Source: a virus
Virus record (IMG/VR): IMGVR_UViG_3300045988_127492
Location: 32,001-96,000 of that record
Length of the DNA: 64,000 nt
Strand: one strand, 5' to 3'
Shown here: positions 472 through 57,730 of the stretch, in pieces
Numbering within the stretch: position 1 is the first letter of the stretch
Layout: each line of letters opens with the position of its first letter
Program-made: the position numbers and the translations under genes
The notes under the pieces: generated by a model
What the model was told of the DNA's origin: nothing
Databases searched by the model: none
Seen by the model: the letters and a program-made list of their open reading frames with translations, nothing else

Positions 472-1308
472 ATGTTACAATTTGAATTCGATGGACACAG
501 TTCTAATGAATACGGAATTATAGTGACTGCTATTACAGACAATGATAATCTTGAAAGCAGGACCTTACAATTAGGAGAAAAAAATAGATATAGAGTAAGA
601 GAGAATCATTTTGGTACGGTATATGAAGGTAATTATAGTTTTACTATTAGCATTATGAAGAATCCTTGCCTTAGCGTAAATATAGAACCTGAATCAACAA
701 ACAATTCTTATTACTTATCTTCCGATGATGTTCGCATTATTAATGGCTGGTTGACCTCTCCTCAAACACCAAGACTACTTAAAATAACTGGTGGAGATTA
801 CTTCTGTGAGAATATAGAATTTTTCGCCACATTTACAGAAGTGGGTACTGATCATGTAATATCTCCATTTGAAATGAATTTTACAGTGACATGCGATAGT
901 CCTTATGGGTATACTCCTGAGATTACACACACTATCACCTCTTCTTCTACTCTTACAAAAAATTATACAATCAATAATACTTCTGACTGTTATGAAGATT
1001 ATATTTATCCTCTCATCAAAATTTCCCCAAAAAGTCACGGATCCATAACACTTCAAAATACAACTGACAACAATGGCACAATGAAAATTAATGCTTTGAA
1101 AAATGATGAATTTTATATTGATTGCCAACATTTAAAAATATATGACATTACTAATTCACTTATAAGTTTTGAAGATTTAGGTGTAAATGATATAGATAAT
1201 ATATATTGGCTTAGATTAGCTCACGGTGAAAATGTTTTAAATTTCACTGGAGATGCATCATTTGAAATTGTTTACAGAGAGCCAAGAAAGGTAGGTGTAT
1301 TTGCTTGA
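472..1308 (+). CDS. Distal tail protein (Dit, siphovirus tail family)
   Basis: GAGGTG RBS. The N-terminus MLQFEFDGHSSNEYGIIV is typical of Sipho_tail/Dit proteins. Gene order is TMP-Dit-Tal. Confidence 0.65.
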   Translation: MLQFEFDGHSSNEYGIIVTAITDNDNLESRTLQLGEKNRYRVRENHFGTVYEGNYSFTISIMKNPCLSVNIEPESTNNSYYLSSDDVRIINGWLTSPQTPRLLKITGGDYFCENIEFFATFTEVGTDHVISPFEMNFTVTCDSPYGYTPEITHTITSSSTLTKNYTINNTSDCYEDYIYPLIKISPKSHGSITLQNTTDNNGTMKINALKNDEFYIDCQHLKIYDITNSLISFEDLGVNDIDNIYWLRLAHGENVLNFTGDASFEIVYREPRKVGVFA

Positions 1309-4300
1309 AAGTAAAGCATAAATATGATATTTATGGACGCACCGAACCTTCTATCATCTATTTAGCTAAACCTGGTAAAAGATTACATTGTGCTCTTAAT
1401 GGAGTTGATACCTCTACTGTTTCACTATCTTTAAAAACCAACAATACAGCGGAATTAACTTTTACTGTAGATAAATATGTAGACAATATTATCACTGATG
1501 GTTATGAAGAATTAGATGAATTAATGGAACTGTATTGCGATGGTATATGGTTTAAGATTGTAGATCCACCTACTATTAATAATGATGGATTACGCGAAAC
1601 TAAAGAAATCACAGCTGAGTCTTATGAAATTATGCTTACCCAATATAGATTAAAAAATTTTAAAATCAATATGGGTGAGAAAGATTCTTATGAGATGATA
1701 TATCAAGCTTCTCATGACGCTGACAAATTTTATCAGATTAAATTTTGCGATCCAGAAAATGAAGATTTAAGTTTTTTACATTTGGTGTTAAAACATGCAG
1801 ATGTTCCAGGCTGGCATATTGGATATGTAGATAATATCACACCAGATGATGATGGAAAATTGCTTCCTGATAATATATGCAATTTTGATGTAGATGATCA
1901 AAATGTATACGCTTTTTTAACTCAAGAGACAGCTCAAGCTTATAAATGTGTATTCGAGTTTGATACCGTAAACATGACTATAAACGTTTATAGACCTGAC
2001 AGTTTAGGTAAAGATACAAATGTAATCTTAGGATTCAGAAATATCCAGAACAGTATATCTATTTCCAGAGAAGAAAATCTAGTTACTCAGTTCTATGTTG
2101 AGGGGCTTGACAGTTATAATATTGATGCAGTTAACTTTGGTGATTCTGTAATTACAGACCTCTCCTATTTTGTGCGTGAGCCGTATATGAACGCTACGCT
2201 ACAAGAAAAATATAATGCATGGCAAGATTATAGAGAATCTCGCAGAGAAGAGTTTATGAATCTATCCAGAGAATATAACCAGAATCTGGAAGTTCTTACT
2301 GAACTGACAAATAGAGTTCCTGTTGATTCTGCTCAGACGAACTGGTTTGGAAAAACAGTTGAAGAATTAAAAGATGCATATGATTCTAATATGGCTATCA
2401 TCAAAGGTTTTGAATCTCTCTATGTTGACGATGAGAAAAACTTTGATTTAGATGCTTTAAAGAAATCATCTGATTGGCCTATGTATGAATCTATTATGAA
2501 CTACACTCTTCCTGCTATTGTTGCTGCATTACAAGCACAAGATGAGACCGTGGATGGATTTGGCAAGGGAAATATTATTTCTTGTGTTAACCCTGTAGTT
2601 CTTGGACAAGATTGGTATACTGTTGGTTCTGGTACTTCTACTTTTAAAGCTGTACAGGTTGATGATGCACCAGCATATGGCATTACTCGTGGTATAGAAA
2701 TAACAGGTACAGATGGTGGCATTTATCAGCATAATATCAACATCGAACCATCTCAGAGATATACTCTTAGTTGTTTTGTAAAAGGTTCTGGTACATTCTA
2801 TCTTGGTTATGGCAATACTGGCGAAGATAGAAAAAACATTTCTTATGACATTACTTCTTCTTGGACAAGAGTCTATACTTCTTTTAAACTCTCTTCTCAT
2901 CTTATTGATGTAGCATTTACTGGAAGTTCTGATTTCACCGTATGTGGTATGCAGCTCGAAATGGGTGATTCACCAAGTCAGTTTGGATATTTCACACAGT
3001 CTGAAAATATCATGAAAGCTTACGAGACAGATTGGAAGCTTTACGGTATTTCAGAACTAAAAGTAAAGATTTCTACATATGATGGTTGTATTAAAGAACT
3101 AAAAAAGAACGGATATGACAATGAATATAACTCTTTAGCTGGCTATGAAGAAGCGTATTTTACACAGATGCATCAGAAATATCTTGATTACCTCAATCTA
3201 AAAGAACAAGCTGAAGCCGCTCTAACGGAACGTCAGGCAGAATATGACGTTGCTGAAAAACCTGAAATTCAGGAAAAGCGAAATCAAATTGCTAAAGATG
3301 TGTTAATTGAAAATTACGGTAAAGTGCAAACTCAGTATCCGGCTTTTACAGATACAGAAATGTATATTATTAAAAGTCTATATAATCAATCTATTTATAC
3401 AAATGAAAACATTATTGTCACCACTCTTGACAGTACTGCTGATGCTGTAGATAAATCCAAAGTTCTTTATGATGATGCAATAGAAGAACTATACGTAGAA
3501 TCACATCCACAGTATACGTACACTGATGATATCGAAAATATATACACTCTTCCTGAGTTCAAAGAGTATCACGAACAGTTAAATGTGAATGATTTTGTAC
3601 GTGTAGGACTTTCTGACACTTCCTATGTTAAACTAAGAGTAATTGAAATTACTTATAATCCTTGTGACTTAGACGAATCAATGGAAATTACTTTTAGCAA
3701 TATGATTCAATATAAAGCTAAAAGAAATGATTATAATTCTCTTTTAAACGATGTGATCAATGCTTCTGATAGAACTGGCGGTCGTATTAACTCAGTCAAT
3801 AAATCTACTACTTCTGATTATGTAATCACTGCGGATGTTATCAAACAGATCTTTTCAAATCCTCTCTTCAACTCTATGCTCGGTGGGGCTACTACTGGAG
3901 GAGCCGGATCAAGCGGAACAGTTACTGCTGATGCAATTGTCGCAGAGCTTGTTAAGGCTAAGGAAGGTGTATTTGATAAACTTACTGTTGATACTGCTTT
4001 CATGACATATTTAGATGCAAACCTCATTTCAGCAGATACTATTACTACAAGGATTCTTAATGCAGAACAGGCCAACATTGAAAAATTATCAGCCACCTTG
4101 ATTGAAGCTAACCAAATTTCAGCTGATATGGCAAACATTAAAAATCTCATTGCAGGTAATGCAGGTGTTGGAGAATTACATACCATTCATCTTACTGCAG
4201 AAAATGTAGAGATTGATCAGGCTGTTATTACTGATCTTATCGCAAAGAAAATTGCTGTTGGAGATTTAATGGCACAAAATGCTCTTGCAAATCAGATTGT

Positions 4301-6854
4301 GCTTGTCTCTAAAAATAATAAACCTACTATTGCATTCCAAGAAAGTACACAGCAGTTCTATGATTCTGCTGGCAATATTCGTGTACAAATTGGTATGGAT
4401 GGCAATGGAAATTTCAACTTCATTGTTAAAAATGGTAATAAAGCCGCTCTCTTCGATGAGAATGGTATTACTCAGACTGGTATCCCAAACAATACAATTC
4501 TTGGAGATATGATTAACAATGCAACAATTACTAAGGATAAACTTGGATTCCAAGTAATAGAGCCTAATAAACAAGGTGGCATTGATATCACAAACATTTA
4601 CGATGGCAAAGGTAATCAATGGTGGGGAATCGAAAAGACTACTATTACAGATGATTACACGAAACAGATCAAAAATGTTACGGATACGCTTACTGGACAG
4701 ATTGAAACGAAGGTAAGCAATACTGATTATCTCAAAGATCAAGAAGCCATTCAAACTGAATTCTCAGACATCAAGCAAGATGTTTCTGGTATTACTTCTA
4801 CTGTAAGCAGTATGAGGACTGACCTTTCTGATGCTCAGGGAAAAATTACTGCAAACTCATCTTCTATCACCCAGAACGCTGACAAAATTTCATTTATGGT
4901 TACAGGCGACAAAGAGTCTGAATTCCAAGTTACAAATAAATTTATTCAGATGATTTCTGACACAATTGGTATTAAAGCAAATAACATCAACATCGACGGT
5001 ATTATTACTGCTATGAACAATAGTATTGATAGTAGTACTACAAGAATCAATGGTGGAATCATTGATACCAATACTGTAAATGCCATGCTTATTGCTGCTC
5101 AGTCATTGCAATCTAAGAATTATCAGGGACCATCTACGGCTGACGGAATTTATGCTCAAGCAGGACTTCAGATTAACATGGAAACTGGATCTATGAAAGC
5201 AAAGAATTTTGCTGTTGATGGTGAAGGTAATGCTTATTTTAAAGGTAACGGTGAATTTGAAGGTAAAATCATTGCTTCTTCTGGTCAGATTGCGGATTGT
5301 ACAATTGATAAAGGAAAATTTACGGTACCTTTTGCAAACATTACTGGTACTTTATCCTCAAATCAAATTGCAGCAAATTCTATTTCTGCTGACAAACTAA
5401 CAACAAATAATATCGTTGGGACAAATGGATGGATCAATCTTGCGACCGGGACGTTTGATTATGGAAATGGAAAGTTTGTATGGGATGGTACAACTGCAAG
5501 TATTGAAGGAAAAATCAAATCCACAATTGGATCAATTGGTTGTTGGACACTTGATGATGATTCAATTTACAGAACTAATAAAGAGTTTGCTGCTTCTGAC
5601 GGAATGTATTTTGGAGTTTCCGGATTATCAATCAGTGATAAGTTCAAAGTAACCTCAGATGGAGTTCTCGCGGCAACAGGAAGTAATATCAGCGGCGATA
5701 TTAATGCTACGAATATGACTGCAAAAGGTAGTTATTCTATCTATTATAATACAACTAATGGTATACCTACGGATTCAGATAAGATAATTACAGCAATTAA
5801 CTGGGAAGATTATAATGATAAGTCTGTTCTATTTGGGTTTGCAGATGATGATCATGTTGAAGTTACAGGAATGTCCGTGACGAAATCAAATAGATCTATT
5901 GTGTTTGGAGGAGAATCTATTCAGCTCAATGGGATAGTCTATGTGACAGGTACAAATGGTTCTATCCCGTACCAAAATATTACCTGGAATCCTCCAAGCT
6001 CCACAGTTTTCTCGTGTAATGGTTATGGACATCATCATACAATCCTTCCTACCGGAACAGGCACGAATGCAATAGGTATAAGTAATACAAGTGATGACCC
6101 TGATGTAAGTGCAGAATGGAGCATTGTTCCTTATATATTAAATACACCAATTGATGACACTGGACGGTACACTGGCGAAAACATCTCAATTTCAAAAGAC
6201 GCCTCAGCGGCTATGAATATCGGTTCAGCAAAATATAATTTCAAATGCGTATATACAAAATCATTGAATCTAAATGGAAAATCATACAGTATTATAGATA
6301 GTATATATAATGCACAAGGATATGGTATTCGTGCTAATTATAATAGTACTGCAAAAGAGCATCGAATTCTGCCATCTCATAATGATGAAAATGCCGACGG
6401 ACTCGTTACTCTTGGATCAAATGGTACGAGTTTTAAATCTATTTGGTGTAGTCAAAGTAGTATTAATTCTAAATCAGATCGGAATATGAAAGAGGACATA
6501 AAAGAATATAATGAGACTATTGAGCAAGCATATATGGAGTTCCAACCAGTTTCTTACAAATTCAAAAACTTCAGCAAAGCGACTAATCATGATCGCACTC
6601 ATTATGGTCTCATCGCCCAGGGTGTTGAAGAGACCTTACATAAGTACGGAATCACTAACGAAGAGGCAGGATTTTTATTAATTGACCAACTTGAAGAACC
6701 TAATGAGGCCGGGAATATGGTGAATTACGGATTAAGATATGGTGAATTTATTCCTTTGAACATGCATATGACCCAGAAAGCACATCGTAGAATTGATTCA
6801 CTTGAAAAAGAAATTCTTTCACTTAAGGATGAAATTAAAAAACTGCAGAAATAA
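1305..6854 (+). CDS. Tail-associated lysin-like / tail-tip fibre protein (Tal-type N-terminus, CBM-like insert, coiled-coil repeats, C-terminal S74 intramolecular chaperone)
   Basis: 1849-aa ORF whose TTG start overlaps the Dit stop (TTGA). The C-terminus SDRNMKEDI...THYGLIAQGVEE...LRYGEFIPL matches the peptidase S74 self-cleaving chaperone of tail spikes and fibres. Confidence 0.8.
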   Translation: MKVKHKYDIYGRTEPSIIYLAKPGKRLHCALNGVDTSTVSLSLKTNNTAELTFTVDKYVDNIITDGYEELDELMELYCDGIWFKIVDPPTINNDGLRETKEITAESYEIMLTQYRLKNFKINMGEKDSYEMIYQASHDADKFYQIKFCDPENEDLSFLHLVLKHADVPGWHIGYVDNITPDDDGKLLPDNICNFDVDDQNVYAFLTQETAQAYKCVFEFDTVNMTINVYRPDSLGKDTNVILGFRNIQNSISISREENLVTQFYVEGLDSYNIDAVNFGDSVITDLSYFVREPYMNATLQEKYNAWQDYRESRREEFMNLSREYNQNLEVLTELTNRVPVDSAQTNWFGKTVEELKDAYDSNMAIIKGFESLYVDDEKNFDLDALKKSSDWPMYESIMNYTLPAIVAALQAQDETVDGFGKGNIISCVNPVVLGQDWYTVGSGTSTFKAVQVDDAPAYGITRGIEITGTDGGIYQHNINIEPSQRYTLSCFVKGSGTFYLGYGNTGEDRKNISYDITSSWTRVYTSFKLSSHLIDVAFTGSSDFTVCGMQLEMGDSPSQFGYFTQSENIMKAYETDWKLYGISELKVKISTYDGCIKELKKNGYDNEYNSLAGYEEAYFTQMHQKYLDYLNLKEQAEAALTERQAEYDVAEKPEIQEKRNQIAKDVLIENYGKVQTQYPAFTDTEMYIIKSLYNQSIYTNENIIVTTLDSTADAVDKSKVLYDDAIEELYVESHPQYTYTDDIENIYTLPEFKEYHEQLNVNDFVRVGLSDTSYVKLRVIEITYNPCDLDESMEITFSNMIQYKAKRNDYNSLLNDVINASDRTGGRINSVNKSTTSDYVITADVIKQIFSNPLFNSMLGGATTGGAGSSGTVTADAIVAELVKAKEGVFDKLTVDTAFMTYLDANLISADTITTRILNAEQANIEKLSATLIEANQISADMANIKNLIAGNAGVGELHTIHLTAENVEIDQAVITDLIAKKIAVGDLMAQNALANQIVLVSKNNKPTIAFQESTQQFYDSAGNIRVQIGMDGNGNFNFIVKNGNKAALFDENGITQTGIPNNTILGDMINNATITKDKLGFQVIEPNKQGGIDITNIYDGKGNQWWGIEKTTITDDYTKQIKNVTDTLTGQIETKVSNTDYLKDQEAIQTEFSDIKQDVSGITSTVSSMRTDLSDAQGKITANSSSITQNADKISFMVTGDKESEFQVTNKFIQMISDTIGIKANNINIDGIITAMNNSIDSSTTRINGGIIDTNTVNAMLIAAQSLQSKNYQGPSTADGIYAQAGLQINMETGSMKAKNFAVDGEGNAYFKGNGEFEGKIIASSGQIADCTIDKGKFTVPFANITGTLSSNQIAANSISADKLTTNNIVGTNGWINLATGTFDYGNGKFVWDGTTASIEGKIKSTIGSIGCWTLDDDSIYRTNKEFAASDGMYFGVSGLSISDKFKVTSDGVLAATGSNISGDINATNMTAKGSYSIYYNTTNGIPTDSDKIITAINWEDYNDKSVLFGFADDDHVEVTGMSVTKSNRSIVFGGESIQLNGIVYVTGTNGSIPYQNITWNPPSSTVFSCNGYGHHHTILPTGTGTNAIGISNTSDDPDVSAEWSIVPYILNTPIDDTGRYTGENISISKDASAAMNIGSAKYNFKCVYTKSLNLNGKSYSIIDSIYNAQGYGIRANYNSTAKEHRILPSHNDENADGLVTLGSNGTSFKSIWCSQSSINSKSDRNMKEDIKEYNETIEQAYMEFQPVSYKFKNFSKATNHDRTHYGLIAQGVEETLHKYGITNEEAGFLLIDQLEEPNEAGNMVNYGLRYGEFIPLNMHMTQKAHRRIDSLEKEILSLKDEIKKLQK

Positions 6855-12393: not shown

Positions 12394-12433
12394 CGGTTCT
12401 TTTTTATGTTTAATTTTGAGGAGGAATTTTATT

Positions 12434-13441
12434 ATGGGAAACGATTGTTATACTGTTTACAAACATACAACACCAAATAATAAATATTACATTGGAATTA
12501 CCGGTCAAAACCCATTAAAACGTTGGCAAAATGGATATGGATATAAAGGCCAAATATTTTTTTATGCTATTCAAAAATATGGTTGGGATAATATCACGCA
12601 TGAAATCATTAAAGAAAATCTCACTGAAGAAGAAGCCCAACAATTAGAAATAGAGTTGATAGCTAAATATAGAAGTAATCAAGCCGATTTTGGATATAAT
12701 GTTTCATCCGGAGGTAAAGGAACTCATCATGCAAATACTGGATGCATGGATGAAAATAATTTAAAACATTATTCTCGTCCTGTAAATCAATATGATATAA
12801 AATTCAATTTTATTTCTAGTTATATAAGCATTGCTGATGCGGCATTAAAGACAAATACAAATCCATATGCATTATCTAACGCATGTAATCAACGTTTATT
12901 AACTGCTAATGGTTATATATGGATACATAAAGATTGTGACAATCTACAATATAGAGAAAAACTAAAACAAAAACTATTTGATAATAAACATTATAATAAT
13001 CAGTCAACATATGCATGCAGACCTGTTATATGTTTTGATTATCAACTAAATTATATCTGTACATACAAAAGTATTAATTCTGCTAAAACAGCAATTAATA
13101 AAAATAACGGGCAACCGATATTTCTTTCTTGTGTTTCTCAGCAATACTCAGCTTACGGATATGTGTGGCGTTTTGCTGATGAAATTTCAGATCTGTCAAT
13201 TTTTCAAAAAGATAATTCTTATCTCATCCCCAATAAATACAAAACCATTCTCAAATTTAATTTAAATAAAGACTTTATTTGTAAATATGAAAATTCTATA
13301 GCTGCTTCAAAAGACGAAGATAATAACATCACGACTAGCAGAGTTATTGAAATATGTAAGCGAAATAGAAACTACTGTAATGGCTATATTTACCGATTTG
13401 AGGATGATTGTGAATTTAACATTCAAAAGGAGGCTGCATAA
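12434..13441 (+). CDS. GIY-YIG homing endonuclease, free-standing (I-TevI/Seg-like)
   Basis: GAGGAGG RBS before the ATG at 12434. Motifs YTVYKHT...KYYIGIT...RWQNGYGY...E(x)ELI. Three C-terminal repeats of the type 'RPV.QYD....Y.S...A......GY.W' (DNA-binding modules). Confidence 0.8.
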   Translation: MGNDCYTVYKHTTPNNKYYIGITGQNPLKRWQNGYGYKGQIFFYAIQKYGWDNITHEIIKENLTEEEAQQLEIELIAKYRSNQADFGYNVSSGGKGTHHANTGCMDENNLKHYSRPVNQYDIKFNFISSYISIADAALKTNTNPYALSNACNQRLLTANGYIWIHKDCDNLQYREKLKQKLFDNKHYNNQSTYACRPVICFDYQLNYICTYKSINSAKTAINKNNGQPIFLSCVSQQYSAYGYVWRFADEISDLSIFQKDNSYLIPNKYKTILKFNLNKDFICKYENSIAASKDEDNNITTSRVIEICKRNRNYCNGYIYRFEDDCEFNIQKEAA

Positions 13442-13442
13442 T

Positions 13443-15128
13443 ATGGCAACAAAATTACTAGATATTAGTTTCTGGCAGGATACTTTAGATTTTGCCAAAA
13501 TCAAAAAAGCTGGATACGATAATATTATTCTTCGTGCAGGATATGGAACTACTATTGATTCCAAATTCAATGAGTATGCTAATGCTTGTAAAAAAAATAA
13601 CATTAATATTGTAGCTGTATATTGGTTTATATATGCTACAAACACTTCCGAAGTAAAAGCCAATGCAAATAAATGCTTAGAAGTAATTAAAGCATATAAA
13701 CCTAAAATCGTATTCGCCGACTTTGAATATGACACTGTTACGAAGGCTGCTAAGAAAGGTGTAAAACTTGGTGCAAAAGAATGTGATAGTTTTACTATTG
13801 AATTTTGCGAAACAGTTAAAAAAGCAGGATATACTCCAGGATACTATGCCAATACAGATTATTACAAGAATATGTACTCTTCTGTAAAAAACAAAGGTTA
13901 TGTATTCTGGTTAGCTCATTATAAATCAGATTATTCATATCATGAACCACCTATTAAATGTGATTTCTTTCAGTACACAGACAGAGGTACTGTACCTGGT
14001 CTAACAGGTAAAAAATTTGATACTAACGTCTGTTTCTCTGAGAAATATCTCTCTAAAACTTCTTCCACTTCTACAAATAAACCCAACACAAAACCTACAA
14101 CATCCTCTATAACAATTGATCAAGCAATTGATGCTCTTATTGCTACTGCTAGAGCTGAAGTTGGGTATTTAGAGAAAAAATCTAATTCTCAGCTTGATAG
14201 TAAGATTGCGAATGCAGGTTCTGCTAACTATACTAAGTACTGGAGAGACGTAAAACCAGAATGGAATGGATATGCGTGGTGTGCAGCGTTCGTCTCTTGG
14301 CTTATGATGAAAACATTCGGCTTAGAAACAGCTAAAAAGCTTCTTAAACATTGGCCTTATACATACTGTCCAGCTATGAAAGACTATTTCACATTATATG
14401 CAAATCCTCAGCGAGGAGATATTGTAATTTTTTATCGCAAAGGTAAATTTGCTCATACAGGATTAGTTACTAAAGTCGAAGGTGATAAATTCTATACTAT
14501 CGAAGGAAATACTTCTTCAGGATCAGAAATTATCCCAAATGGTGGTGCTGTATGTGCCAAAAGTTATTACAATTCTCAGCTTCCGGGTACAAAGTTCTGT
14601 AGACCGGATTACTCTATTGTCACATCTATTCTGACTTCTAATACCACTTCTAACAGTTCCAATCCAGCCTCAAATCCAGTATACGCAGCATGGGTAGGTT
14701 CTTGTACAGCTAACGGAACAGACGTGTTCTCAGGTGCTACAGGAGCTTCTAAGTTAGCTACATATCCTAAGCTGAACAAGGGAAATCTTGTTGATGTTAT
14801 CGGTGAATCCGGATCAAGATATCAGGTTCGTATCGCGGCAAAATATATCGGCTATGTAGAGAAATCTAACATCAAAAATCCTAATGCTGCTACAACAACT
14901 ACTAAGAAATATCCTTTTGTAGGAAAAGTAACTGCAAATGAACTCAATGTTCGTACTGGTGCAGGTAAAAGCTATAGTAATTTATCAGCTTATCCCATAC
15001 TTAAAATGGACAACTTGGTAGATGTCCTCCGTGCTACAAAAGATACCGCCGGTACAAAGTGGTATAAGATCAAAATTGCAGGTAAATATACTGGTTATGT
15101 TTCCGCTCAGTATATTACTAAGGTATAA
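13443..15128 (+). CDS. Endolysin: GH25 muramidase + CHAP/NlpC-P60 peptidase + 2x SH3
   Basis: AGGAGG RBS before the ATG at 13443. LLDISFWQD...ILRAGYG is the GH25 signature; NGYAWCAAFVSW...HTGLV...EGNTS is the CHAP signature. Two C-terminal SH3-like repeats end ...YIGYVEKSNI and ...YTGYVSAQYI. Confidence 0.85.
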   Translation: MATKLLDISFWQDTLDFAKIKKAGYDNIILRAGYGTTIDSKFNEYANACKKNNINIVAVYWFIYATNTSEVKANANKCLEVIKAYKPKIVFADFEYDTVTKAAKKGVKLGAKECDSFTIEFCETVKKAGYTPGYYANTDYYKNMYSSVKNKGYVFWLAHYKSDYSYHEPPIKCDFFQYTDRGTVPGLTGKKFDTNVCFSEKYLSKTSSTSTNKPNTKPTTSSITIDQAIDALIATARAEVGYLEKKSNSQLDSKIANAGSANYTKYWRDVKPEWNGYAWCAAFVSWLMMKTFGLETAKKLLKHWPYTYCPAMKDYFTLYANPQRGDIVIFYRKGKFAHTGLVTKVEGDKFYTIEGNTSSGSEIIPNGGAVCAKSYYNSQLPGTKFCRPDYSIVTSILTSNTTSNSSNPASNPVYAAWVGSCTANGTDVFSGATGASKLATYPKLNKGNLVDVIGESGSRYQVRIAAKYIGYVEKSNIKNPNAATTTTKKYPFVGKVTANELNVRTGAGKSYSNLSAYPILKMDNLVDVLRATKDTAGTKWYKIKIAGKYTGYVSAQYITKV

Positions 15129-15140
15129 AGGAGGCACAAC

Positions 15141-15689
15141 ATGGGAATAGAGCAAATTCAGAAAATCCATGAGTTTGGTGAGATAAATGTTGTCATTGTT
15201 GTGCTTCTTGTTGCTGCATTAGTTATTGCTCTTAAAGCTGGTTGGGAAAAGTTATTAGATGCACTTGGACTTGAAACTAAGTCTTCTCTGGAGAAGAAAG
15301 CTCTGGAAACTAAGATAGCTGAACTTGAAAAAAAGATTGCAGATTTTGAACAAAGTCAGCACACATACCATGATCAGTCTATCAGTATTAGAGATGATCT
15401 AAAGACAAATCAATCTACTCTAAGTGCTCAACTTACTGATCTGACGAACTTAATGCAAAACTTTATTCACAACCAAGATGAATGTACTGTAGCATCATTT
15501 AGAAGTTCTCTCTGGAGAATGCATAGAGATTTTATGTCTCAGGGATATATTACACCAGATGGATTAAAAACATTTCTGGAAATGGGGAAATTGTACGAGA
15601 AGGCCGGTGGAAATGATATTTATCATGAGAAGCTTCTTCCTGATATTGAATCATTGGAGGTTAGATATACAAAAGACAGTGTACTATAG
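15141..15689 (+). CDS. Membrane-anchored coiled-coil protein (possible holin or lysis accessory)
   Basis: AAGGAGG RBS. N-terminal TM helix VVIVVLLVAALVIAL followed by a coiled coil. It lies directly after the endolysin. Confidence 0.45.
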   Translation: MGIEQIQKIHEFGEINVVIVVLLVAALVIALKAGWEKLLDALGLETKSSLEKKALETKIAELEKKIADFEQSQHTYHDQSISIRDDLKTNQSTLSAQLTDLTNLMQNFIHNQDECTVASFRSSLWRMHRDFMSQGYITPDGLKTFLEMGKLYEKAGGNDIYHEKLLPDIESLEVRYTKDSVL

Positions 15690-15706
15690 GGAGATTATGT
15701 GCTAAA

Positions 15707-15940
15707 ATGAAAAAGTATACAAACGAATCAAAGCGAAATGATTATAAATGGTTCACACTTCATAAAGAAGATTTGTACAATAGATACGGACATAAATACA
15801 TTGCTATTCGTAATAAGCGTATACTTGGAGCTTTTAGTAATTCATATGATGCATATACATCTATTAAACCATCAGGAACATATTCTGTATATGAATTACT
15901 TGATCCTAAAGAACCAATAAAAATTTATATTCCGCAGTAA
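15707..15940 (+). CDS. Small protein, DUF5678-like
   Basis: The core W.....DLYNRYGHKYIAIRNKRILG resembles DUF5678 (from memory). It lies 10 nt upstream of the aspartic protease gene. Confidence 0.4.
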   Translation: MKKYTNESKRNDYKWFTLHKEDLYNRYGHKYIAIRNKRILGAFSNSYDAYTSIKPSGTYSVYELLDPKEPIKIYIPQ

Positions 15941-15950
15941 GAGAGACATT

Positions 15951-16415
15951 ATGAAAGCCAAATCGTTTACATATATCACAAGAGAAAAACCACGACAATT
16001 GATAACTATAGTAAAAATACATTCAAAATATGCCAAACAGTATAATGATATTAATAAGCCATGGAGAGCTTTATGGGATACTGGAGCAACAAATTCATGT
16101 ATTTCATCTAATGTTGTTAATTATTTAAATTTAGAAGTAAATGATTCTGCTTCGATTCAAACCGCTGGTGGGATTTATCATACCAAACAATATCTTATAG
16201 ATGTTGAACTAACAAATGGTGTAATTATAGAGGATATTCCTATGTTTAATGCTGAATTAGACGGTTATGACATGTTAATAGGAATGGATATAATATGTCA
16301 AGGTGATTTTTCTATTACTTCATCAAATAGTCTTACAAAATTCTCATTTCGAATACCGCATAAGAAACATGTGGATTATTCAATTAATGAGAAGAAAGCT
16401 TCTTTAAAATTGTAA
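15951..16415 (+). CDS. Retropepsin-like (clan AA) aspartic protease
   Basis: Catalytic-type motif ALWDTGATNSCIS plus the C-terminal MLIGMDII motif. At 154 aa it is the size of a single lobe. Confidence 0.6.
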   Translation: MKAKSFTYITREKPRQLITIVKIHSKYAKQYNDINKPWRALWDTGATNSCISSNVVNYLNLEVNDSASIQTAGGIYHTKQYLIDVELTNGVIIEDIPMFNAELDGYDMLIGMDIICQGDFSITSSNSLTKFSFRIPHKKHVDYSINEKKASLKL

Positions 16416-16422
16416 AGTTTAT

Positions 16423-16459
16423 GGGTAGTCAGGCGTTATGCTTGGCTACCCATTTTTTT
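16423..16459 (+). terminator. Rho-independent terminator closing the late/lysis transcription unit
   Basis: GGGTAGTC...GGCTACCC stem followed by a T7 run. Confidence 0.65.
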
Positions 16460-16857
16460 ACTTTTATGTTATACTACTCTCTCAGAGAGGTGAACAAATG
16501 AAAAGATATGAATATAAACCAGGCTTCTGCAAGCTGCTCCACTATAACGGATTATGGAGAGTTGAATGTCAATGAGTACCTGGACATTTCAGAAAAGTGA
16601 AGATGGTCTGTCCATGTATCAAAGACGGATGTGGTCAGGATTGTGAAGTGTTTGAAACTGTAGCTGATGTTAAGGATCCGAGTATGGAATGGCATATGTG
16701 AAACGAATCGGGAGATATGATTGGATGAGTCCGTTTTTCGTCGATTTATTTCGATAAATATTTAGTATTTGCGACCAATTTCCGACAAAATTTCCTTCTT
16801 AAATAATGTATAGTAAACGTACATTATATATCGAATTTAGAGGAGGAAACATGAATT

Positions 16858-17139
16858 ATGGTGAATTACGGTAACGCAGATTTTATTTATGACCTTATGA
16901 CAGGAGTATATAATCGAAGGATTATAAAAGATTCTTTAAAGGATATTGTTCCGGAAGATAAACTTTTCGAGAGTGCCATGGGTGAGATATACGAAGCCAG
17001 GATTCGGATCTGCGATAAGATGGGATTAGAGTTGGATGAAAATACAGATCTGAATATCATCACGGACAATTATTCCGCGCTCTGTAGATATCTCTGCCGC
17101 AAAATGTTCTTATACGGTACAAACCTGCAGAAAATATAA
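16858..17139 (+). CDS. Hypothetical accessory protein next to attP
   Basis: GAGGAGG RBS upstream, own terminator downstream, and locally less AT-rich sequence. Confidence 0.4.
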   Translation: MVNYGNADFIYDLMTGVYNRRIIKDSLKDIVPEDKLFESAMGEIYEARIRICDKMGLELDENTDLNIITDNYSALCRYLCRKMFLYGTNLQKI

Positions 17140-17187
17140 TTATTTAGTACATACACACTTATTCAGGCGTAAAATTTAAACGAACTA

Positions 17188-17229
17188 AAAAGGACAGTCG
17201 AGCGTAATACTCTTCTGTCCTTTGTTTTT
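17188..17229 (+). terminator. Rho-independent terminator
   Basis: AGGACAG...CTGTCCT stem followed by TTGTTTTT. Confidence 0.55.
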
Positions 17230-17567: not shown

Positions 17568-18746
17568 TTAGAAGTCTGTAATAGATACCATCATGTTTTC
17601 AAGTAATTTGATATCCGAATTTTTTTTATCTTCTAAAACATCAGTATAAATATCCATTGTCATTTTTAAGGAAGAGTGCCCAAGATATGCCTGTACTGTC
17701 TTAGGTGGAACACCTGCTTCAAAGCAACGTGTAGCAAATGTGTGTCTAAATGTATGAGTAGTAAAATATGGCATAGGCACTTGATTATTTTTTTTTCGTT
17801 CTTCATTAACCTTATTTATTACTCTTTTTATATTGTTTGTGTATGTAGTTGGATGTATTGGACCATTTAAACTTGAAACAAATAATAGATTTCCGACTAT
17901 ATCTTGGTGTTTTGGAGGATACGGGAGTTGTTGAACCTGTTTCATTTGATCTTGAACTGCTTTCCTGCAAATACTATTCATTGGAACTTGGCGGAAACTT
18001 GCTTTTGTTTTTGGTGGATGAATTTCAAATTCTGTAGTTCCGTTTTTACTTAAATATACAATAGTTTTGTTTACATCAATTACATTGTTTGCAAAATCAA
18101 TATCTTCAAATGTTAGTGAACATAATTCACCACAACGTAACCCTGTATTAATTGCTACAACAAATAAGTTATAATAAAAACTTTCTTTAGCAGCTTGGAA
18201 AAAGTCTTTTTGTTCTTTTACAGGTAAAACATATGTGCGTTGCGATTTTGTACCAGTTACTTTAATTCCTCTAACTGGATTCTGACGACATAAATTATTA
18301 TCTATTGCGTAACTAAACATATTAAATAATTCTGATCTTATATATTCAACACGACTTTTAGACATATTTTTTCCTAAAGTGTTAAAAAAATCTGTTATCA
18401 TTATATTTGTTATAGAAGTTAATGGTGTATTTCCAAAAACTGGCTCAATATGATGTTTGTATGTAGATTTTAATGAAAATATAGATGAAGAACGTAATGT
18501 AGGTTCTTTATACACTCTCATCCATTTTTCATACCACTGCCCCAGCGTCATATTTGGATTAGCTACATTATTCATATTATAGTCATCGACAACCTCAGTC
18601 ATCAAAGCATTTTTAACTTCTTTCAAAGTCTTTCCATACACACATTCACGTTTCCCGAACCTATTTACAAATCGGGCTTGATATCTACCGTCCTTTCTCT
18701 GTGTGATACCTTTTCCAAGTTCTTTACCTTTTAAATCTTTTCCCAT
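17568..18746 (-). CDS. int: Tyrosine integrase (phage integrase family with N-terminal arm-binding domain)
   Basis: HTFRHTFATRCFEAG...LGHSSLKMTMDIYTDV carries the R..H-x-x-R...Y catalytic signature. The N-terminus GITQRKDGRYQARF is arm-binding-like. Confidence 0.9.
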   Translation of the reverse strand: MGKDLKGKELGKGITQRKDGRYQARFVNRFGKRECVYGKTLKEVKNALMTEVVDDYNMNNVANPNMTLGQWYEKWMRVYKEPTLRSSSIFSLKSTYKHHIEPVFGNTPLTSITNIMITDFFNTLGKNMSKSRVEYIRSELFNMFSYAIDNNLCRQNPVRGIKVTGTKSQRTYVLPVKEQKDFFQAAKESFYYNLFVVAINTGLRCGELCSLTFEDIDFANNVIDVNKTIVYLSKNGTTEFEIHPPKTKASFRQVPMNSICRKAVQDQMKQVQQLPYPPKHQDIVGNLLFVSSLNGPIHPTTYTNNIKRVINKVNEERKKNNQVPMPYFTTHTFRHTFATRCFEAGVPPKTVQAYLGHSSLKMTMDIYTDVLEDKKNSDIKLLENMMVSITDF

Positions 18747-51457: not shown

Positions 51458-54079
51458 TTAGTTACTTCCTTTCTTACAAATTGCTTTTCTAGTCCAATCT
51501 ACAGGCACAACCATAAATGCTGTCACTAAGACTACAATCCACTGTTTAGCATCCATTGGAGTTGTCTGTACTAGATTTCCTACAAAGTTACACAAAACTA
51601 CAGTCATTGCAAAAATACCCAATGCGATATATACAAATAATTTGTTATTTTTAATTCCTTTGAAAAGATTCATACTATCTGTTCTAATAGTGAATCCATT
51701 AAATACTGCCATTAAACACAATAAAGCGAATCTCGCTGTCATAGCCGAAAGTTTTGTTGCAAACATATTTCCAACTGGACCAAATGTAATTACACCAAAT
51801 AAAGCAATAAATACAATTGAACTTAATGCAATTCTTCCTTTCGCTCCACGGATAAATAATCCGGATCCTTTCATGATAGGCTCTTCATTCATATATTCCT
51901 CTTTTGGCGGTTCCCCACCAAAGCTTAATGAGTTAAGTGAATCCATGATGATATTTACAATAAGAATCTGAACTGCTGCTAAGAGAGCTGATCCGCCAGA
52001 AATAATTGGAAATACCATACTTAAGATCAACAATGAAATATTGATAGGTAACTGGAATTCAAGGAACATCATAATGTTATGCATAAATGTTCTACCAAGT
52101 TCGACTGCCTTTACCACACTTGCAAAATTATTGTCTGTCAAAACAATATCTGCTGCTTCTTTTGCTACATCAGATCCGTCTTGCATTCCAAAGCCTACAT
52201 CTGCTTTCTTTAGTGCAGGAGCATCGTTCACACCGTCACCTGTCATTGCTACAGACATTCCAATTTCTTGTGCTAATGTTACAAGGCGAAGCTTCGTATT
52301 CGGTGAGCATCTGGAAATTACTCTTAACTGTGGAATAATCTCTTTTACCTTTTCATCTGACATTGCCTCAAACTCATCATTGGTAACTGCTAAGTCTCCA
52401 GGCTTATAAATTCCAGCTTCCATAGCAACAGCCTTAGCAGTCTCCATGCAATCGCCAGTAATTTCAATTACCTGAATTCCAGCTTTATGAGCAATTTTTA
52501 CTGCTTCTGGAACTTCATTCCTAACCGGGTCAACAACTCCAATGACTCCAAGGAGATTCATTTCATCGGGGAGACCATCATCAGTTTTATCTGAGATAGT
52601 CAATGCAATACATCTCATTGCCTTCTCTGTTAATCCTTTAATATGGCTCTTTAAAGCTTTTCTTTTTTCTTCTGTCAGCTCAGTTACAATGCCATCATTA
52701 TCAAGATAAAATTTACACTTCTCAATTAATTTCTCTGGTGCGCCTTTATAAACAGTAAAATCATTTGCTCCATTATTTAAAGTAACTGCAGAGAATTTAT
52801 TTTCACTACTAAATGGAACACGTTTCTTCATGATAGCTTTATTCTGTATTTTTTGTGCATCTTCAGGAGAAAGCATATCAAGTACTGCTCGATCAATTGA
52901 ATTACCACCAGTGATATTTCCGTTAGAATCGAACACTGCACTATTATTCATGCAGATATTTAAATCAATTAGCTCGTTGAGCGGACTTTCCTTATTAAAA
53001 ATATCCTGACAGTTACCGTTAATCATAACTGTAGAAGTCATTTCACCTGTTGTGAGAGTTCCTGTCTTATCTGTGCAAATTAAATTAACATATGCTAATT
53101 CAGGAATTTTACCAGTATTCTTTGCAAGAATATTGAATTTTTCCATTGTTGATACATTTTGTTTAGTGACAAGTTTTACAATGAGTGGTAAGCCTTCTGG
53201 TACAGCAGCAACAATAATTGTCAATGCATTTGAGACATTCTGTGCTACTTTCTGAATACTTTCAAGAATACTTCCTGAGAAATACTGATTTAAGCTTCCA
53301 GCATTTAAGATACCTGTAATTGTCATAATTACAAATGCTAATGCTGCCGCAATTGTTCCCCATTTTGAAATAAAATCACACAAATGATCCAGAGCAATAT
53401 CAAGAGCTGTCTTAGGTGGTTCTAAAGTCTGCATTTTGACAAGAGTATCACCATTAACTGTATTAACACCAACATCTGTAACAATCATTTTTCCTTCACC
53501 AGACATAATAACTGTTCCTGCAAAGAGAGAACACTGGTCCGTATATGCAGTAGTTGATGTTGTTTTAACATGCTTATAATCAATACTAGGAATCTTTCTA
53601 CATTCTTTTGTTTCTCCATTGATAGCGGCATTATTAACAGAAATTTCCCCTTCAACAATAAAACCATCTGCAAAAATCTCTTGTCCAGTTCTCAATAGAA
53701 CTAAATCACCTACTACCAGATCATCTTTATTAATTGTCTGTATGCTTCCGTCTCGGACAACATCACAATATCTAACTGCCGTTTTTGCTCTTAGTTCTGC
53801 TGCAGATTTCTGTACACCTAGACCTGTCTTAATAGCAATTCCAGTAACAATAGCCAAAACCACTATAATCATCACAGGCTCAGAAAGAGACATTACTCCC
53901 ATAGCTCCTAAAACTAACTGGAATAAAGCAATTATTATTAGAATCATAGTAATTGGTTCAGTTAATGCTTCCTTAGCAAAATGATACCATTTTTTCAATT
54001 CAGACTCCGGAAGCTTATTACTTCCATATGTAGCCCTGCTAACCTCTACTTCGTTACTTTTTAATCCATTAAATTTCAT
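51458..54079 (-). CDS. P-type ATPase, Ca2+-transporting (P2-type)
   Basis: ICTDKTGTLT phosphorylation motif, TGDGVNDAPALKKADVG, PEGLP, and about 10 TM helices. The ATG at 54079 follows AGGAGA. Confidence 0.9.
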   Translation of the reverse strand: MKFNGLKSNEVEVSRATYGSNKLPESELKKWYHFAKEALTEPITMILIIIALFQLVLGAMGVMSLSEPVMIIVVLAIVTGIAIKTGLGVQKSAAELRAKTAVRYCDVVRDGSIQTINKDDLVVGDLVLLRTGQEIFADGFIVEGEISVNNAAINGETKECRKIPSIDYKHVKTTSTTAYTDQCSLFAGTVIMSGEGKMIVTDVGVNTVNGDTLVKMQTLEPPKTALDIALDHLCDFISKWGTIAAALAFVIMTITGILNAGSLNQYFSGSILESIQKVAQNVSNALTIIVAAVPEGLPLIVKLVTKQNVSTMEKFNILAKNTGKIPELAYVNLICTDKTGTLTTGEMTSTVMINGNCQDIFNKESPLNELIDLNICMNNSAVFDSNGNITGGNSIDRAVLDMLSPEDAQKIQNKAIMKKRVPFSSENKFSAVTLNNGANDFTVYKGAPEKLIEKCKFYLDNDGIVTELTEEKRKALKSHIKGLTEKAMRCIALTISDKTDDGLPDEMNLLGVIGVVDPVRNEVPEAVKIAHKAGIQVIEITGDCMETAKAVAMEAGIYKPGDLAVTNDEFEAMSDEKVKEIIPQLRVISRCSPNTKLRLVTLAQEIGMSVAMTGDGVNDAPALKKADVGFGMQDGSDVAKEAADIVLTDNNFASVVKAVELGRTFMHNIMMFLEFQLPINISLLILSMVFPIISGGSALLAAVQILIVNIIMDSLNSLSFGGEPPKEEYMNEEPIMKGSGLFIRGAKGRIALSSIVFIALFGVITFGPVGNMFATKLSAMTARFALLCLMAVFNGFTIRTDSMNLFKGIKNNKLFVYIALGIFAMTVVLCNFVGNLVQTTPMDAKQWIVVLVTAFMVVPVDWTRKAICKKGSN

Positions 54080-54081
54080 TT

Positions 54082-55113
54082 TCAAATTTCTCCTAAAATA
54101 ATTCTTTCATTGACAGATGCCACAAACGCTTCTATGGATTTATAATCTGGTTTATCTGGTAACGCAGTATTTTCCGCATCATATTTAAGTCTTTTCTCTA
54201 ACTCATCTATCATTTCAAAAAACTCTGGAATAGGCTGATAATTTTCATCCAAATATTTTCCATTGCGTAAATCCATAAGAAGTTCATGATCATCTTCTCT
54301 ATATGTAATAATTTTTCCTTTCTCAAGAATGTCAAAACACATAAGATACAGTCTCACTAAATGACACATATGCTTTCCCAACTTATTGTGATCTATAGCA
54401 TGTTTGTTTCTCTTCCCAATTTTAGAATAGTCTTTAACAATACTTTTCATTTCAGCCCACATTCCTTGATAATCATTCAAAGGATAGTGCTTTAGGTGAA
54501 TATCCATAAACACTTCTGTTTCATAGTCTTCCTGAACACCTTTATCTACATAAAGCTTTATTGCATCTTCTGGAAAATTGAAATACTTTTCAGGGAAAGT
54601 ATAAAAAGCATTCATAATACTATTAAGAACATGCTGCATTCTTTCTTCTTGTCCCAATTTCCTGGCAGCTTTATTATCGAGCCTTCTTAGCTGACTTGTA
54701 GCATAGCCTCCAAAAGAATAGATCGCTTTCTTAGATAAAAACATTTCAGCATTATCAAGAAGTTCTTGACCAATTGGATGAATATAAAGATAATGTTCTG
54801 GCTTCAATCCTATCAGCTCAATTGTGTTTGGGTTGCAGTTTGACAATAGAGTTATCAATTTATTAAAAGAATAGATTGTTGTATCTGTTGTTTCTTCCGT
54901 TACCTGATCAAAATTATGTGTAGGAATCAGGATTTCTTCTCTTTTATTTAAAGCACAACCCCTAATATCCAGATCGGAGTTTTCTGTATCTGTACCATAA
55001 GCATGAGACCCACCTAAGCCTAATAGAATTATGTTACTCCCCAGGTGCTCGTTCGCTCTTAAGAAATCATAGTGTTCACTTTTCAACAATTTTTTGATTT
55101 TCTCTATTTTCAT
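54082..55113 (-). CDS. Pol-beta superfamily nucleotidyltransferase (RlaP-like)
   Basis: LLGLGGSHAYGTDTENSDLDIRG is the GS...D.D motif of Pol-beta NTases. The family assignment is from memory. Confidence 0.5.
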   Translation of the reverse strand: MKIEKIKKLLKSEHYDFLRANEHLGSNIILLGLGGSHAYGTDTENSDLDIRGCALNKREEILIPTHNFDQVTEETTDTTIYSFNKLITLLSNCNPNTIELIGLKPEHYLYIHPIGQELLDNAEMFLSKKAIYSFGGYATSQLRRLDNKAARKLGQEERMQHVLNSIMNAFYTFPEKYFNFPEDAIKLYVDKGVQEDYETEVFMDIHLKHYPLNDYQGMWAEMKSIVKDYSKIGKRNKHAIDHNKLGKHMCHLVRLYLMCFDILEKGKIITYREDDHELLMDLRNGKYLDENYQPIPEFFEMIDELEKRLKYDAENTALPDKPDYKSIEAFVASVNERIILGEI

Positions 55114-56584: not shown

Positions 56585-57730
56585 TTACATATCCTCCATT
56601 GAATAAATTACTCTCTCTAAGCTTCTTTTGGATTTAAAGCATTTCTTAAGTAAACACCACATAATTGCCTTTTCAACATCGTCTTCATCTTCCCAATCAT
56701 TTAAGACTACAGAAGTTTGAGTTCCATCTTTAAAGCCAACAGTTGTTCTAATCTTTTCTGTAGAAATATCTCTTGTTCTTCCTACAAATGCAATATCGTC
56801 TTTCGATAAGGTTTTACAAACGTGTTTATCAGTTTTGTTTTTAGGTACAATATATACATCAATACCCAAAGCATCTTTAATCTGACGTTCGCAACTTCTA
56901 AGCTCCTCTCCAATAGTATGTTCTTTTTCTTTTTTCGCTACTACTTTTTCAAGTGCTTTTAAGATTTCATCTGGTGACATGTTCATATCTGTTTTCTCCT
57001 CTTTATAATCAAAATATGGCATTGGTTTCAGTTTAAACTCATTCTTCTCATGTAAACGATCAATTCGTCTTTTTACTTCTGGATCGTCACATACTCCTGT
57101 ACGAATATATCTATCTAATACTGCATAGGTGAATCCAAAGTTATCTTCATCTGACTTGCCGCATAAACCATCTGCTGGCGTTTTCTCTACATATTTTTTA
57201 GGCAATCTTAAATAATGACCAATTGCTACAACTTCCTTTTTTACAAAAGGAGCTAATGGAGCTAAATCTCCTGCTCCGTCACCATCACGAGTAAAATATC
57301 CAATATATATTTCACTAAGATTTCCAGTATTGACTACTCTTCCATTATGAGACTGTGCTACCCCGCGTAAAACAGCCATTCTTAATCTTGGAGCAAGATT
57401 AATCAGGGTCTGATCTGATACATCCAGTGCAAGATCAATCTGATCAATGATATCATCATAAGCATATCCAATATTAATAGTAAGATAATCAATACCTAAT
57501 ACGTGCTGGCAGATATCATACGCCACATCTATATCATCCTGTTTGTAATTTGGCATAATTACTCCGAGGACTTTGCTTGGTCCGACAGCTTCCACACATA
57601 ACTTAGCAGCTACTAAAGAGTCAACACCGCCGGAAATACCTACTATAAAGTTACATTCTGGGCCATTTTTCTCTCTCCAATCTCTGATCCACTGAATGCA
57701 ATCATTTGTTGCTTTTTCTACATTAAACAT
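56585..57730 (-). CDS. nadE: NH3-dependent NAD+ synthetase with a C-terminal extension of about 130 aa of unknown function
   Basis: VGISGGVDSLV PP-loop; NTGNLSEIYIGYFTRDGDGAGDLAPL; PADGL...SDEDNFGFTYAVLD. Confidence 0.8.
   Translation of the reverse strand: MFNVEKATNDCIQWIRDWREKNGPECNFIVGISGGVDSLVAAKLCVEAVGPSKVLGVIMPNYKQDDIDVAYDICQHVLGIDYLTINIGYAYDDIIDQIDLALDVSDQTLINLAPRLRMAVLRGVAQSHNGRVVNTGNLSEIYIGYFTRDGDGAGDLAPLAPFVKKEVVAIGHYLRLPKKYVEKTPADGLCGKSDEDNFGFTYAVLDRYIRTGVCDDPEVKRRIDRLHEKNEFKLKPMPYFDYKEEKTDMNMSPDEILKALEKVVAKKEKEHTIGEELRSCERQIKDALGIDVYIVPKNKTDKHVCKTLSKDDIAFVGRTRDISTEKIRTTVGFKDGTQTSVVLNDWEDEDDVEKAIMWCLLKKCFKSKRSLERVIYSMEDM

Follow-up and report, generated by a model that had tools for sequence, protein, structure and literature searches.

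Retropepsin-like aspartic proteases are abundant in bacteria and phages and almost none of them has a known role; DUF5678, as its name says, is a domain of unknown function. Proteases are known among the effectors of abortive infection, where Lit cleaves EF-Tu and where CHAT or metallo-protease effectors also act. In the literature that we searched, no aspartic protease was found as a toxin or as an effector of a prokaryotic conflict system. Among described cassettes, PDC-M08 of PADLOC is a two-gene "phage defence candidate" (FAM_03167>>FAM_00414) that came from guilt-by-embedding, its function being untested (bioRxiv 10.1101/2024.01.29.577857). Here we analyse a cassette of two genes in a viral stretch of 64,000 nucleotides (nt; IMG/VR record IMGVR_UViG_3300045988_127492, positions 32,001 to 96,000 of that record), hereafter the window, in whose numbering coordinates are given unless another contig is named. 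Both genes lie on the plus strand and start with ATG. ORF-A (15707-15940) encodes a DUF5678-like protein of 77 amino acids (aa), which is a basic, divergent representative of the partner family described below, and ORF-B (15951-16415) encodes a predicted single-lobe, retropepsin-like aspartic protease of clan AA, 154 aa long. Between them is a spacer of 10 nt (15941-15950, plus strand) with a purine-rich ribosome-binding stretch, which points to tight coupling of both genes. An earlier note on this DNA, made from the letters alone, had described the two open reading frames (ORFs) with this spacing, and its coordinates and features are confirmed.

We found that the cassette is one case of a widespread two-gene module, apparently undescribed, and that the protease gene of this module is almost never seen without the partner gene. 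Joining the two families in one obligate mobile operon provides a concrete and testable functional frame for both.

Co-occurrence of the two genes

Loci were surveyed by means of the protease profile and comprised 80 viral loci from IMG/VR, 80 loci from species-representative genomes and the loci returned by exact-protein look-ups; ORFs were called in all of them and searched with hidden Markov models (HMMs). The survey sets, which in all cover about 280 partly overlapping loci, share some contigs, so that the counts given here are not fully independent. A partner homologue was present directly upstream and on the same strand in 164 of the 165 protease loci (136 unique pairs), the sole exception being locus L104. 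The earlier note had staked its proposal on the two genes being found together elsewhere, and they are. The gap between the paired genes has a median of 2 nt over the 161 homologous pairs, and its commonest values are -4 and -1 (21 loci each), followed by -8 and +2 (13 loci each). The two genes are almost obligate companions, their reading frames overlapping or abutting.

The module is neither rare nor confined to one lineage. At least 562 loci were found in GTDB species genomes and at least 195 relatives in IMG/VR viral contigs, among them several phages of about 170 kb that come from samples of the same kind, which disposes of the earlier statement that retropepsin-like proteases are rare in phages. 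Hosts of the pair include Firmicutes, Bacteroidota, Dehalococcoidia, Verrucomicrobiota, Acidobacteriota, Nitrospirota, Spirochaetota, several Proteobacteria, Omnitrophota and the candidate phyla radiation, among others. One of the phages that carry the pair is the Leptospira phage vB_LbrZ_5399-LE1 (KF114879.1; also KX656785 and KF114880), where it occupies positions 2244-2486 and 2474-3034 of locus L322; the partner is annotated there as hypothetical protein AGS80773.1 and the protease ORF (AIWDTGAM...LIGMDII, HMM E 2e-39) is unannotated.

The reciprocal search, seeded with the canonical partner profile, covered metagenome loci and viral contigs. In the metagenome loci 73 partners were paired and 2 were orphan (73/75), with 5 more lying too near a contig end, and in the viral contigs 41 were paired and 8 were orphan (41/49), with 1 more at a contig end. 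In phages, orphan partners are over-represented (Fisher p = 0.014), and the protease was orphan in only 1 of its 165 loci. In one "orphan", L236, a decayed protease can be read in the sequence that follows the partner. The IMG/VR contigs with a canonical partner and no downstream protease are L274, L277, L278 (=L187), L279, L293, L294, L301 (=L184) and L319; the partner match lies at about 2500-2740 in most of these loci, at about 1200-1540 in L293 and at about 1825-2325 in L301. The orphan partners of L293 and L301 carry a C-terminal extension, and that of L301 also has an N-terminal hydrophobic segment. It is possible that such partner genes in phage contigs are "antidote-only" genes.

The protease

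ORF-B carries ALWDTGATNSCIS, in which the codons of the D-T-G-A motif lie at 16077-16088 and the catalytic aspartate is D43, and further downstream MLIGMDII, with LIGMDII encoded at 16275-16295. Three Pfam models match it above their gathering cut-offs, namely PF13975 (38.8 bits; cut-off 28.2), PF13650 (29.5; 24.3) and PF00077/RVP (22.2; 20.7). The model built with AlphaFold2 (AF2) has a mean predicted local distance difference test score (pLDDT) of 89.4, and its top Foldseek matches in the PDB were the Rickettsia protease APRc (5c9f, E 1e-6), the protease of equine infectious anaemia virus (EIAV; TMt 0.70), the RVP domain of DDI1, and the proteases of feline immunodeficiency virus (FIV) and Rous sarcoma virus (RSV); the sequence profile of ORF-B also reaches DDI1. 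The predicted fold is that of a retropepsin-like enzyme with a single lobe, as had been proposed from the sequence, and by analogy with such enzymes ORF-B would have to homodimerise for activity. The two clan AA subfamilies of NCBIfam, TIGR02281 and TIGR03698, give 17.8 and 15.5 bits where about 57-58 is required, so ORF-B is not a member of either and, judging from these scores, would belong to another subfamily, outside the characterised bacterial ones. Its best PHROG is a generic "protease" family (E 5.7e-4).

A large protein database holds 609 relatives of ORF-B, mostly of 145-200 aa, and in an alignment of 37 homologues W42, D43, T44 and A46 are invariant and G45 is nearly so, while L109-G111-M-D-I-I and, nearer the C-terminus, T.FSFR.PS...D show little or no variation. 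Among 166 protease homologues, 158 have WDTGA[T/S/N/M] and 3 more have one-residue D-[TS]-G variants, so that a D-[TS]-G-[AS] catalytic motif is found in 161; the other 5 are truncated ORFs. Compared with the close relative L001, the codons of ORF-B differ at 11 synonymous and 1 nonsynonymous positions, and those of ORF-A at 4 synonymous and 2 nonsynonymous ones. Because there are 609 protease relatives with invariant catalytic residues, and because the codon differences from L001 are mostly synonymous, the ORFs are more than chance open frames. By inspection, ORF-B has no signal peptide or transmembrane segment. A SEC-C-like zinc motif ends 51 of 141 unique proteases and a polybasic tail ends 39 of them, and ORF-B has neither; we can only speculate that such tails target the enzyme to ribosomes, nucleic acids or membranes.

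The small partner

ORF-A carries YKWFTLHKEDLYNRYGHKYIAI. The earlier note likened this protein to DUF5678, which holds at the level of family and fold and does not hold for the window copy taken by itself: against Pfam DUF5678 (PF18929), ORF-A scores 15.9 bits (E 0.012), below the gathering score of 23.2, and 20 of 36 members of the partner family match DUF5678 at E <= 0.01, the best at 1.4e-8. A single-sequence search with the 77-aa protein returned one near-identical relative only; it took the neighbourhood survey to reveal the family. The HMM built from the ORFs that this survey found upstream of protease homologues matches ORF-A with E 6.7e-20. Searching with the partner profile gave 4703 proteins, some of them labelled PF18929 or named "DUF5678 domain-containing" by NCBI, and an exhaustive search gave 2498 clusters (50% identity) at E <= 1e-3, of which 966 remained at E <= 1e-10.

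The AF2 model of ORF-A (pLDDT 87.4) has a helix at residues 6-27, a beta hairpin, a second helix and two strands. Its best viral fold match in BFVD is a Pandoravirus DUF5678 protein (probability 1.00, TM-score 0.66); against the PDB there was no significant match by fold or by sequence, and matches to ubiquitin variants at E of about 1 are noise. Through intermediate sequences and the predicted fold, ORF-A is best placed as a divergent member of the wider DUF5678 family. That the DUF5678 fold is present in Pandoravirus, a group of amoebal giant viruses, is seen in BFVD entries A0A2U7UG46, S4VV29, A0A4D6EFX0 and A0A2U7UD66.

The Pfam model, with 49 positions, covers only the N-terminal half of the partner (Y.GK.IAI...V.G), whereas conservation in the partner family is strongest in a C-terminal tail, GTFLIQxCxPGxxxYTQTFHSRVxF. 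In the literature on DUF5678 we found no mention of this tail or of the link to a protease. Partners are typically acidic and proteases basic, with median isoelectric points (pI) of 5.5 and 8.7, respectively. Tandemly duplicated partners were found (P0243, P0329 and P0367), and, among P0243, P0329, P0367, P0330 and P0328, some homologues have a tandem duplication or extra N- or C-terminal regions. HicB-like or ribbon-helix-helix (RHH)-like extensions were suspected in P0330 and P0367 and received no Pfam support. Similarly, mimicry of the C-terminal strand of the protease (TxFSFRIP) by the partner tail (TQTFHSRV) was a speculation for which hhalign of the two family profiles found nothing.

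The cassette in its phage

The virus is a gut phage, and its gene content shows it to be a large one: genes on the minus strand encode DNA polymerase III alpha, RecD2- and DnaB-like helicases, ribonucleotide reductase, RNA ligase, a NAMPT/NAPRTase-family enzyme, NAD synthase and a P-type ATPase. A protein of 1849 aa (1305-6854, plus strand) ends in a Peptidase_S74 intramolecular chaperone domain, which indicates a tail fibre or spike and not a tape-measure protein. Two genes closer to the cassette are shared with relatives. An ORF of 341 aa (12416-13441, plus strand) directly upstream of the endolysin is conserved in the 176-kb human-faecal phage MT835469 and in L001; it is GIY-YIG-like and looks like a homing endonuclease, the Pfam GIY-YIG/NUMOD1 matches being recorded for its L001 homologue. 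The endolysin itself (13347-15128, plus strand) has GH25, CHAP and SH3 domains. Directly after it comes an ORF of 182 aa (15141-15689, plus strand), which we regard as context of the module and not part of it. It has a hydrophobic N-terminal segment, only weak matches to Rz-like spanin and "hol-like" PHROGs, and a divergent counterpart of 188 aa in MT835469, and it may be a lysis accessory protein.

From the stop codon of this ORF to the start of ORF-A there are only 17 nt, so that in this phage one transcript probably covers the lysis genes and the cassette. The putative late, lysis and cassette transcription unit would end at an intrinsic terminator (16421-16460, plus strand), a hairpin and T run whose stem at 16421-16453 has 15 pairs, 7 of them G-C, and a loop of 3 nt, and which is the strongest within 12-19.5 kb. 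The two genes had been taken for the last ones before a strong terminator and an attP region. The terminator is real, and what follows is a conserved ORF of 93 aa (16858-17139) with its own terminator hairpin (17189-17229), placed between the cassette and the integrase; the latter (17568-18746, minus strand) lies downstream of the 93-aa ORF, where an Xis-like helix-turn-helix (HTH) ORF is also found. No attachment (att) site was identified near the integrase. The 41-bp segment at 17189-17229, which is 97.6% identical to one beside the unrelated integrase of L001, was considered as an att core and rejected, since it is the terminator of the 93-aa ORF, a hairpin (AAAGGACAG...CTGTCCTTT) with a T run. 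Rfam and tRNA scans found no RNA genes in the window.

Elsewhere in the window, NAD synthase (56585-57730), the NAMPT/NAPRTase-family enzyme (59188-60654) and a full-length P-type cation ATPase (51458-54085) are all encoded on the minus strand. The first two could form an NAD-replenishing counter-defence pathway, and the third is an unusual gene for a phage.

Mobility of the pair

Comparison with close relatives places the cassette in a variable accessory locus. MT835469 is 84% identical to the window over 12400-15118 and shares the GIY-YIG and endolysin genes; its DNA homology stops at 15128 and the cassette is absent. L001 is 93% identical over 14639-17149, which includes the cassette and the 93-aa ORF, but has another integrase and repressor module. 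In L002, an insertion of 717 bp (L002 863-1581) with two small minus-strand ORFs of 67 and 112 aa sits right after the cassette terminator, at window 16462/16465, suggesting that this site is a hot spot for small two-gene cargo. The absence in MT835469, the retention in L001 beside a different integrase and the insertion in L002 together define the locus as variable and accessory, in keeping with the cargo slot that had been suspected from the position of the genes.

Beyond these relatives, the surroundings of the pair change from locus to locus. Among phages and prophages, tail genes flank it in L169 and L170, L171 has it at one end of a prophage with a serine recombinase as neighbour, and in L173 it precedes HNH/terminase genes. 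A Mu-like prophage (L177) carries it after Mor and just before the endolysin, and in large gut phages (L003) its neighbours are ribonucleotide reductase and dUTPase. It was also found among glycosidase genes in Verrucomicrobiota (L174) and between central-metabolism genes in Dehalococcoidia. In loci other than the window, the pair is usually preceded by an intergenic region of its own, 200-800 nt long. A Treponema sp. metagenome-assembled genome (JAAVAM01) has two identical-looking copies on separate contigs (L099, L100). With its patchy spread over many phyla and phages and its variable insertion sites, the pair has the features of a mobile unit.

Function of the pair and rival explanations

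We hypothesise, tentatively and at somewhat less than even chances, that the partner is an antidote or inhibitor and the protease an effector, the two forming a toxin-antitoxin-like, abortive-infection or exclusion module. Both genes would constitute one self-contained and horizontally mobile operon, from which the DUF5678-like partner would be co-produced with the protease through translational coupling and act as its cognate regulator. The cytoplasmic protease would homodimerise into a two-aspartate active site, the partner would most likely bind it and keep it inactive, and loss, titration or triggering of the partner would set the protease free to cleave essential proteins of the cell or of the phage. 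In this phage the cassette is accessory cargo that follows the lysis genes and would close the late operon. The physical interaction of partner and protease, the inhibition, the toxicity, the trigger and the substrates in this scheme are what we infer.

A protective regulatory role for the partner is suggested by the asymmetry of the orphans, since the protease is almost never without its partner while the partner can be without the protease, especially in phages. It is further suggested by the pairing of an acidic partner with a basic enzyme, by the upstream position of the small gene and by the patchy, multi-copy distribution, traits that characterise toxin-antitoxin and abortive-infection modules. 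The asymmetry matches what a dangerous effector and a safe antidote would leave behind, and, if the antidote interpretation holds, orphan partners in phages would be analogous to phage-encoded orphan antitoxins. Moreover, charge complementarity of this kind is typical of type II pairs, and the tandem partner duplications are compatible with a dimeric partner that binds a dimeric enzyme. A broader proposition, possible but rather doubtful in our view, is that the pair constitutes an unrecognised and widespread toxin-antitoxin or abortive-infection class with an aspartic protease effector, of which phages carry both the full module, for exclusion or addiction, and orphan partners as antidotes against host copies.

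Several observations weigh against an antidote and effector pair. The window partner itself is atypical, in that the conserved YTQTFHSRVAF of the tail is replaced by IKIYIPQ (the family tail ...GTFLIQxCxPGxxxYTQTFHSRVxF becoming GTYSVYELLDPKEPIKIYIPQ) and its pI is 9.5, compared with the acidic family median. A Pfam search of this partner, 36 relatives and the extended variants found no DNA-binding domain (HTH, RHH or AbrB), and no partner-protease fusion occurs in the fetched loci. The 17-nt upstream gap has no space for a promoter of the cassette in the window, which suggests late lytic rather than prophage expression. A PADLOC scan of 10 neighbours from 4 chromosomal loci gave no defence genes, and there DruA-like and weak PglZ hints from Pfam were not confirmed, and searches of the literature on DUF5678, on PDC-M08, on PF13975 with defence, and on retropepsins with toxin-antitoxin, phage or anti-phage found nothing on the pair. 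The protease family matches PDC-M08B only weakly, its best member with E 2e-7, which is similarity at the superfamily level, and no PADLOC model, including PDC-M08A, matches the window partner or its 36 relatives. Because of this weak match on one side and the missing match on the other, the window pair does not belong to PDC-M08, and no known defence system in PADLOC was matched by it.

The main competitor, which we consider unlikely though worth keeping in mind, is a processing pair with a benign regulatory role, in which the partner is either a dedicated substrate or precursor (for example, with its tail removed or released) or an activator or adaptor that the enzyme cannot do without and that brings substrates to it. 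The strongest conservation of the partner does fall in its C-terminal tail, as it would for a recognition or cleavage element, and near-obligate co-occurrence with translational coupling would be just as natural for an enzyme and its substrate or cofactor. The known retropepsin-like enzymes of bacteria, RimB for instance, act as specific regulators and not as toxins (PMC11957791), and the small sample of chromosomal neighbours described above is free of defence genes. However, the 8 orphan partners among 49 in phages are hard to understand if the partner is a substrate in need of its protease, and the near-absence of proteases without a partner is better explained by a need for protection than by a need for substrate. 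Selfish or conflict modules, moreover, typically show the patchy and mobile distribution in several copies that is seen here. Less probable still is that the protease is an offensive factor of the phage, made late to cleave host proteins of defence, envelope or translation, with the partner as specificity factor or timer. The way in which the window cassette abuts the lysis genes and shares their terminator would fit such a factor, as would the many relatives in viral contigs, several of them in phages of about 170 kb, and the Mu-like prophage with the pair just before its endolysin. Nevertheless, many bacterial chromosomes carry the pair away from any phage genes, as seen for the loci with glycosidase and central-metabolism genes, and the number of GTDB loci is large; outside the window it usually has its own upstream region; and in phages its position is not bound to one module. 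Finally, a virion (prohead) maturation protease with a scaffold-like partner, an idea to which a weak match to a "minor head protein" PHROG (E 0.08) and the maturation role of retroviral proteases could lend something, is effectively refuted. No head genes are nearby, the neighbours being tail-fibre, endolysin and integrase genes; phages that bear the pair have separate prohead proteases of ClpP or Mu type; and the pair is absent from a close relative of this phage. Its varying position among phages and its presence in non-phage chromosomal contexts bear out the earlier opinion that this is not a maturation enzyme.

If the protease of the preferred antidote and effector module were indeed a regulated toxin or immune effector, aspartic proteases would join the repertoire of prokaryotic conflict systems, the pair would offer a bacterial model for the regulated activity of a retropepsin dimer, and the orphan partner genes of phages would be explained as candidate counter-defences.

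Comparison with known systems

As a protease, ORF-B has in common with APRc (5c9f) and with the RVP domain of DDI1 (2i1a, 3s8i) the D-T-G-A motif, the hydrophobic-hydrophobic-Gly element (LIGMD), the size of a single lobe and the predicted retropepsin fold, although its identity to solved retropepsin-like structures is only 10-25%. APRc and RloA2 are targeted to the membrane or periplasm, whereas ORF-B lacks such targeting and is, by inspection, cytoplasmic; it also lacks the ubiquitin-like (UBL) and ubiquitin-associated (UBA) domains of DDI1. Compared with the solved retropepsins, it has in addition an N-terminal extension of about 40 residues with two strands and a conserved C-terminal hairpin, GDFSITNxNGxTxFSFRIPS, and it differs from proteases of PF13975 and PF13650 in being encoded together with a dedicated small partner. 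With PDC-M08 the window pair shares the arrangement as a two-gene cassette whose second gene is retropepsin-like, PDC-M08B (profiles of 93-128 positions) being weakly similar to ORF-B (E 4e-6). Most type II antitoxins have a DNA-binding domain, whereas the partner has no detectable HTH or RHH. Shared with type II toxin-antitoxin and abortive-infection systems are adjacent, co-oriented and tightly coupled small genes that co-occur across genomes, a small acidic protein encoded upstream of a basic enzyme, a patchy and mobile distribution, presence on prophages, and putative orphan "antidote" copies in phages.

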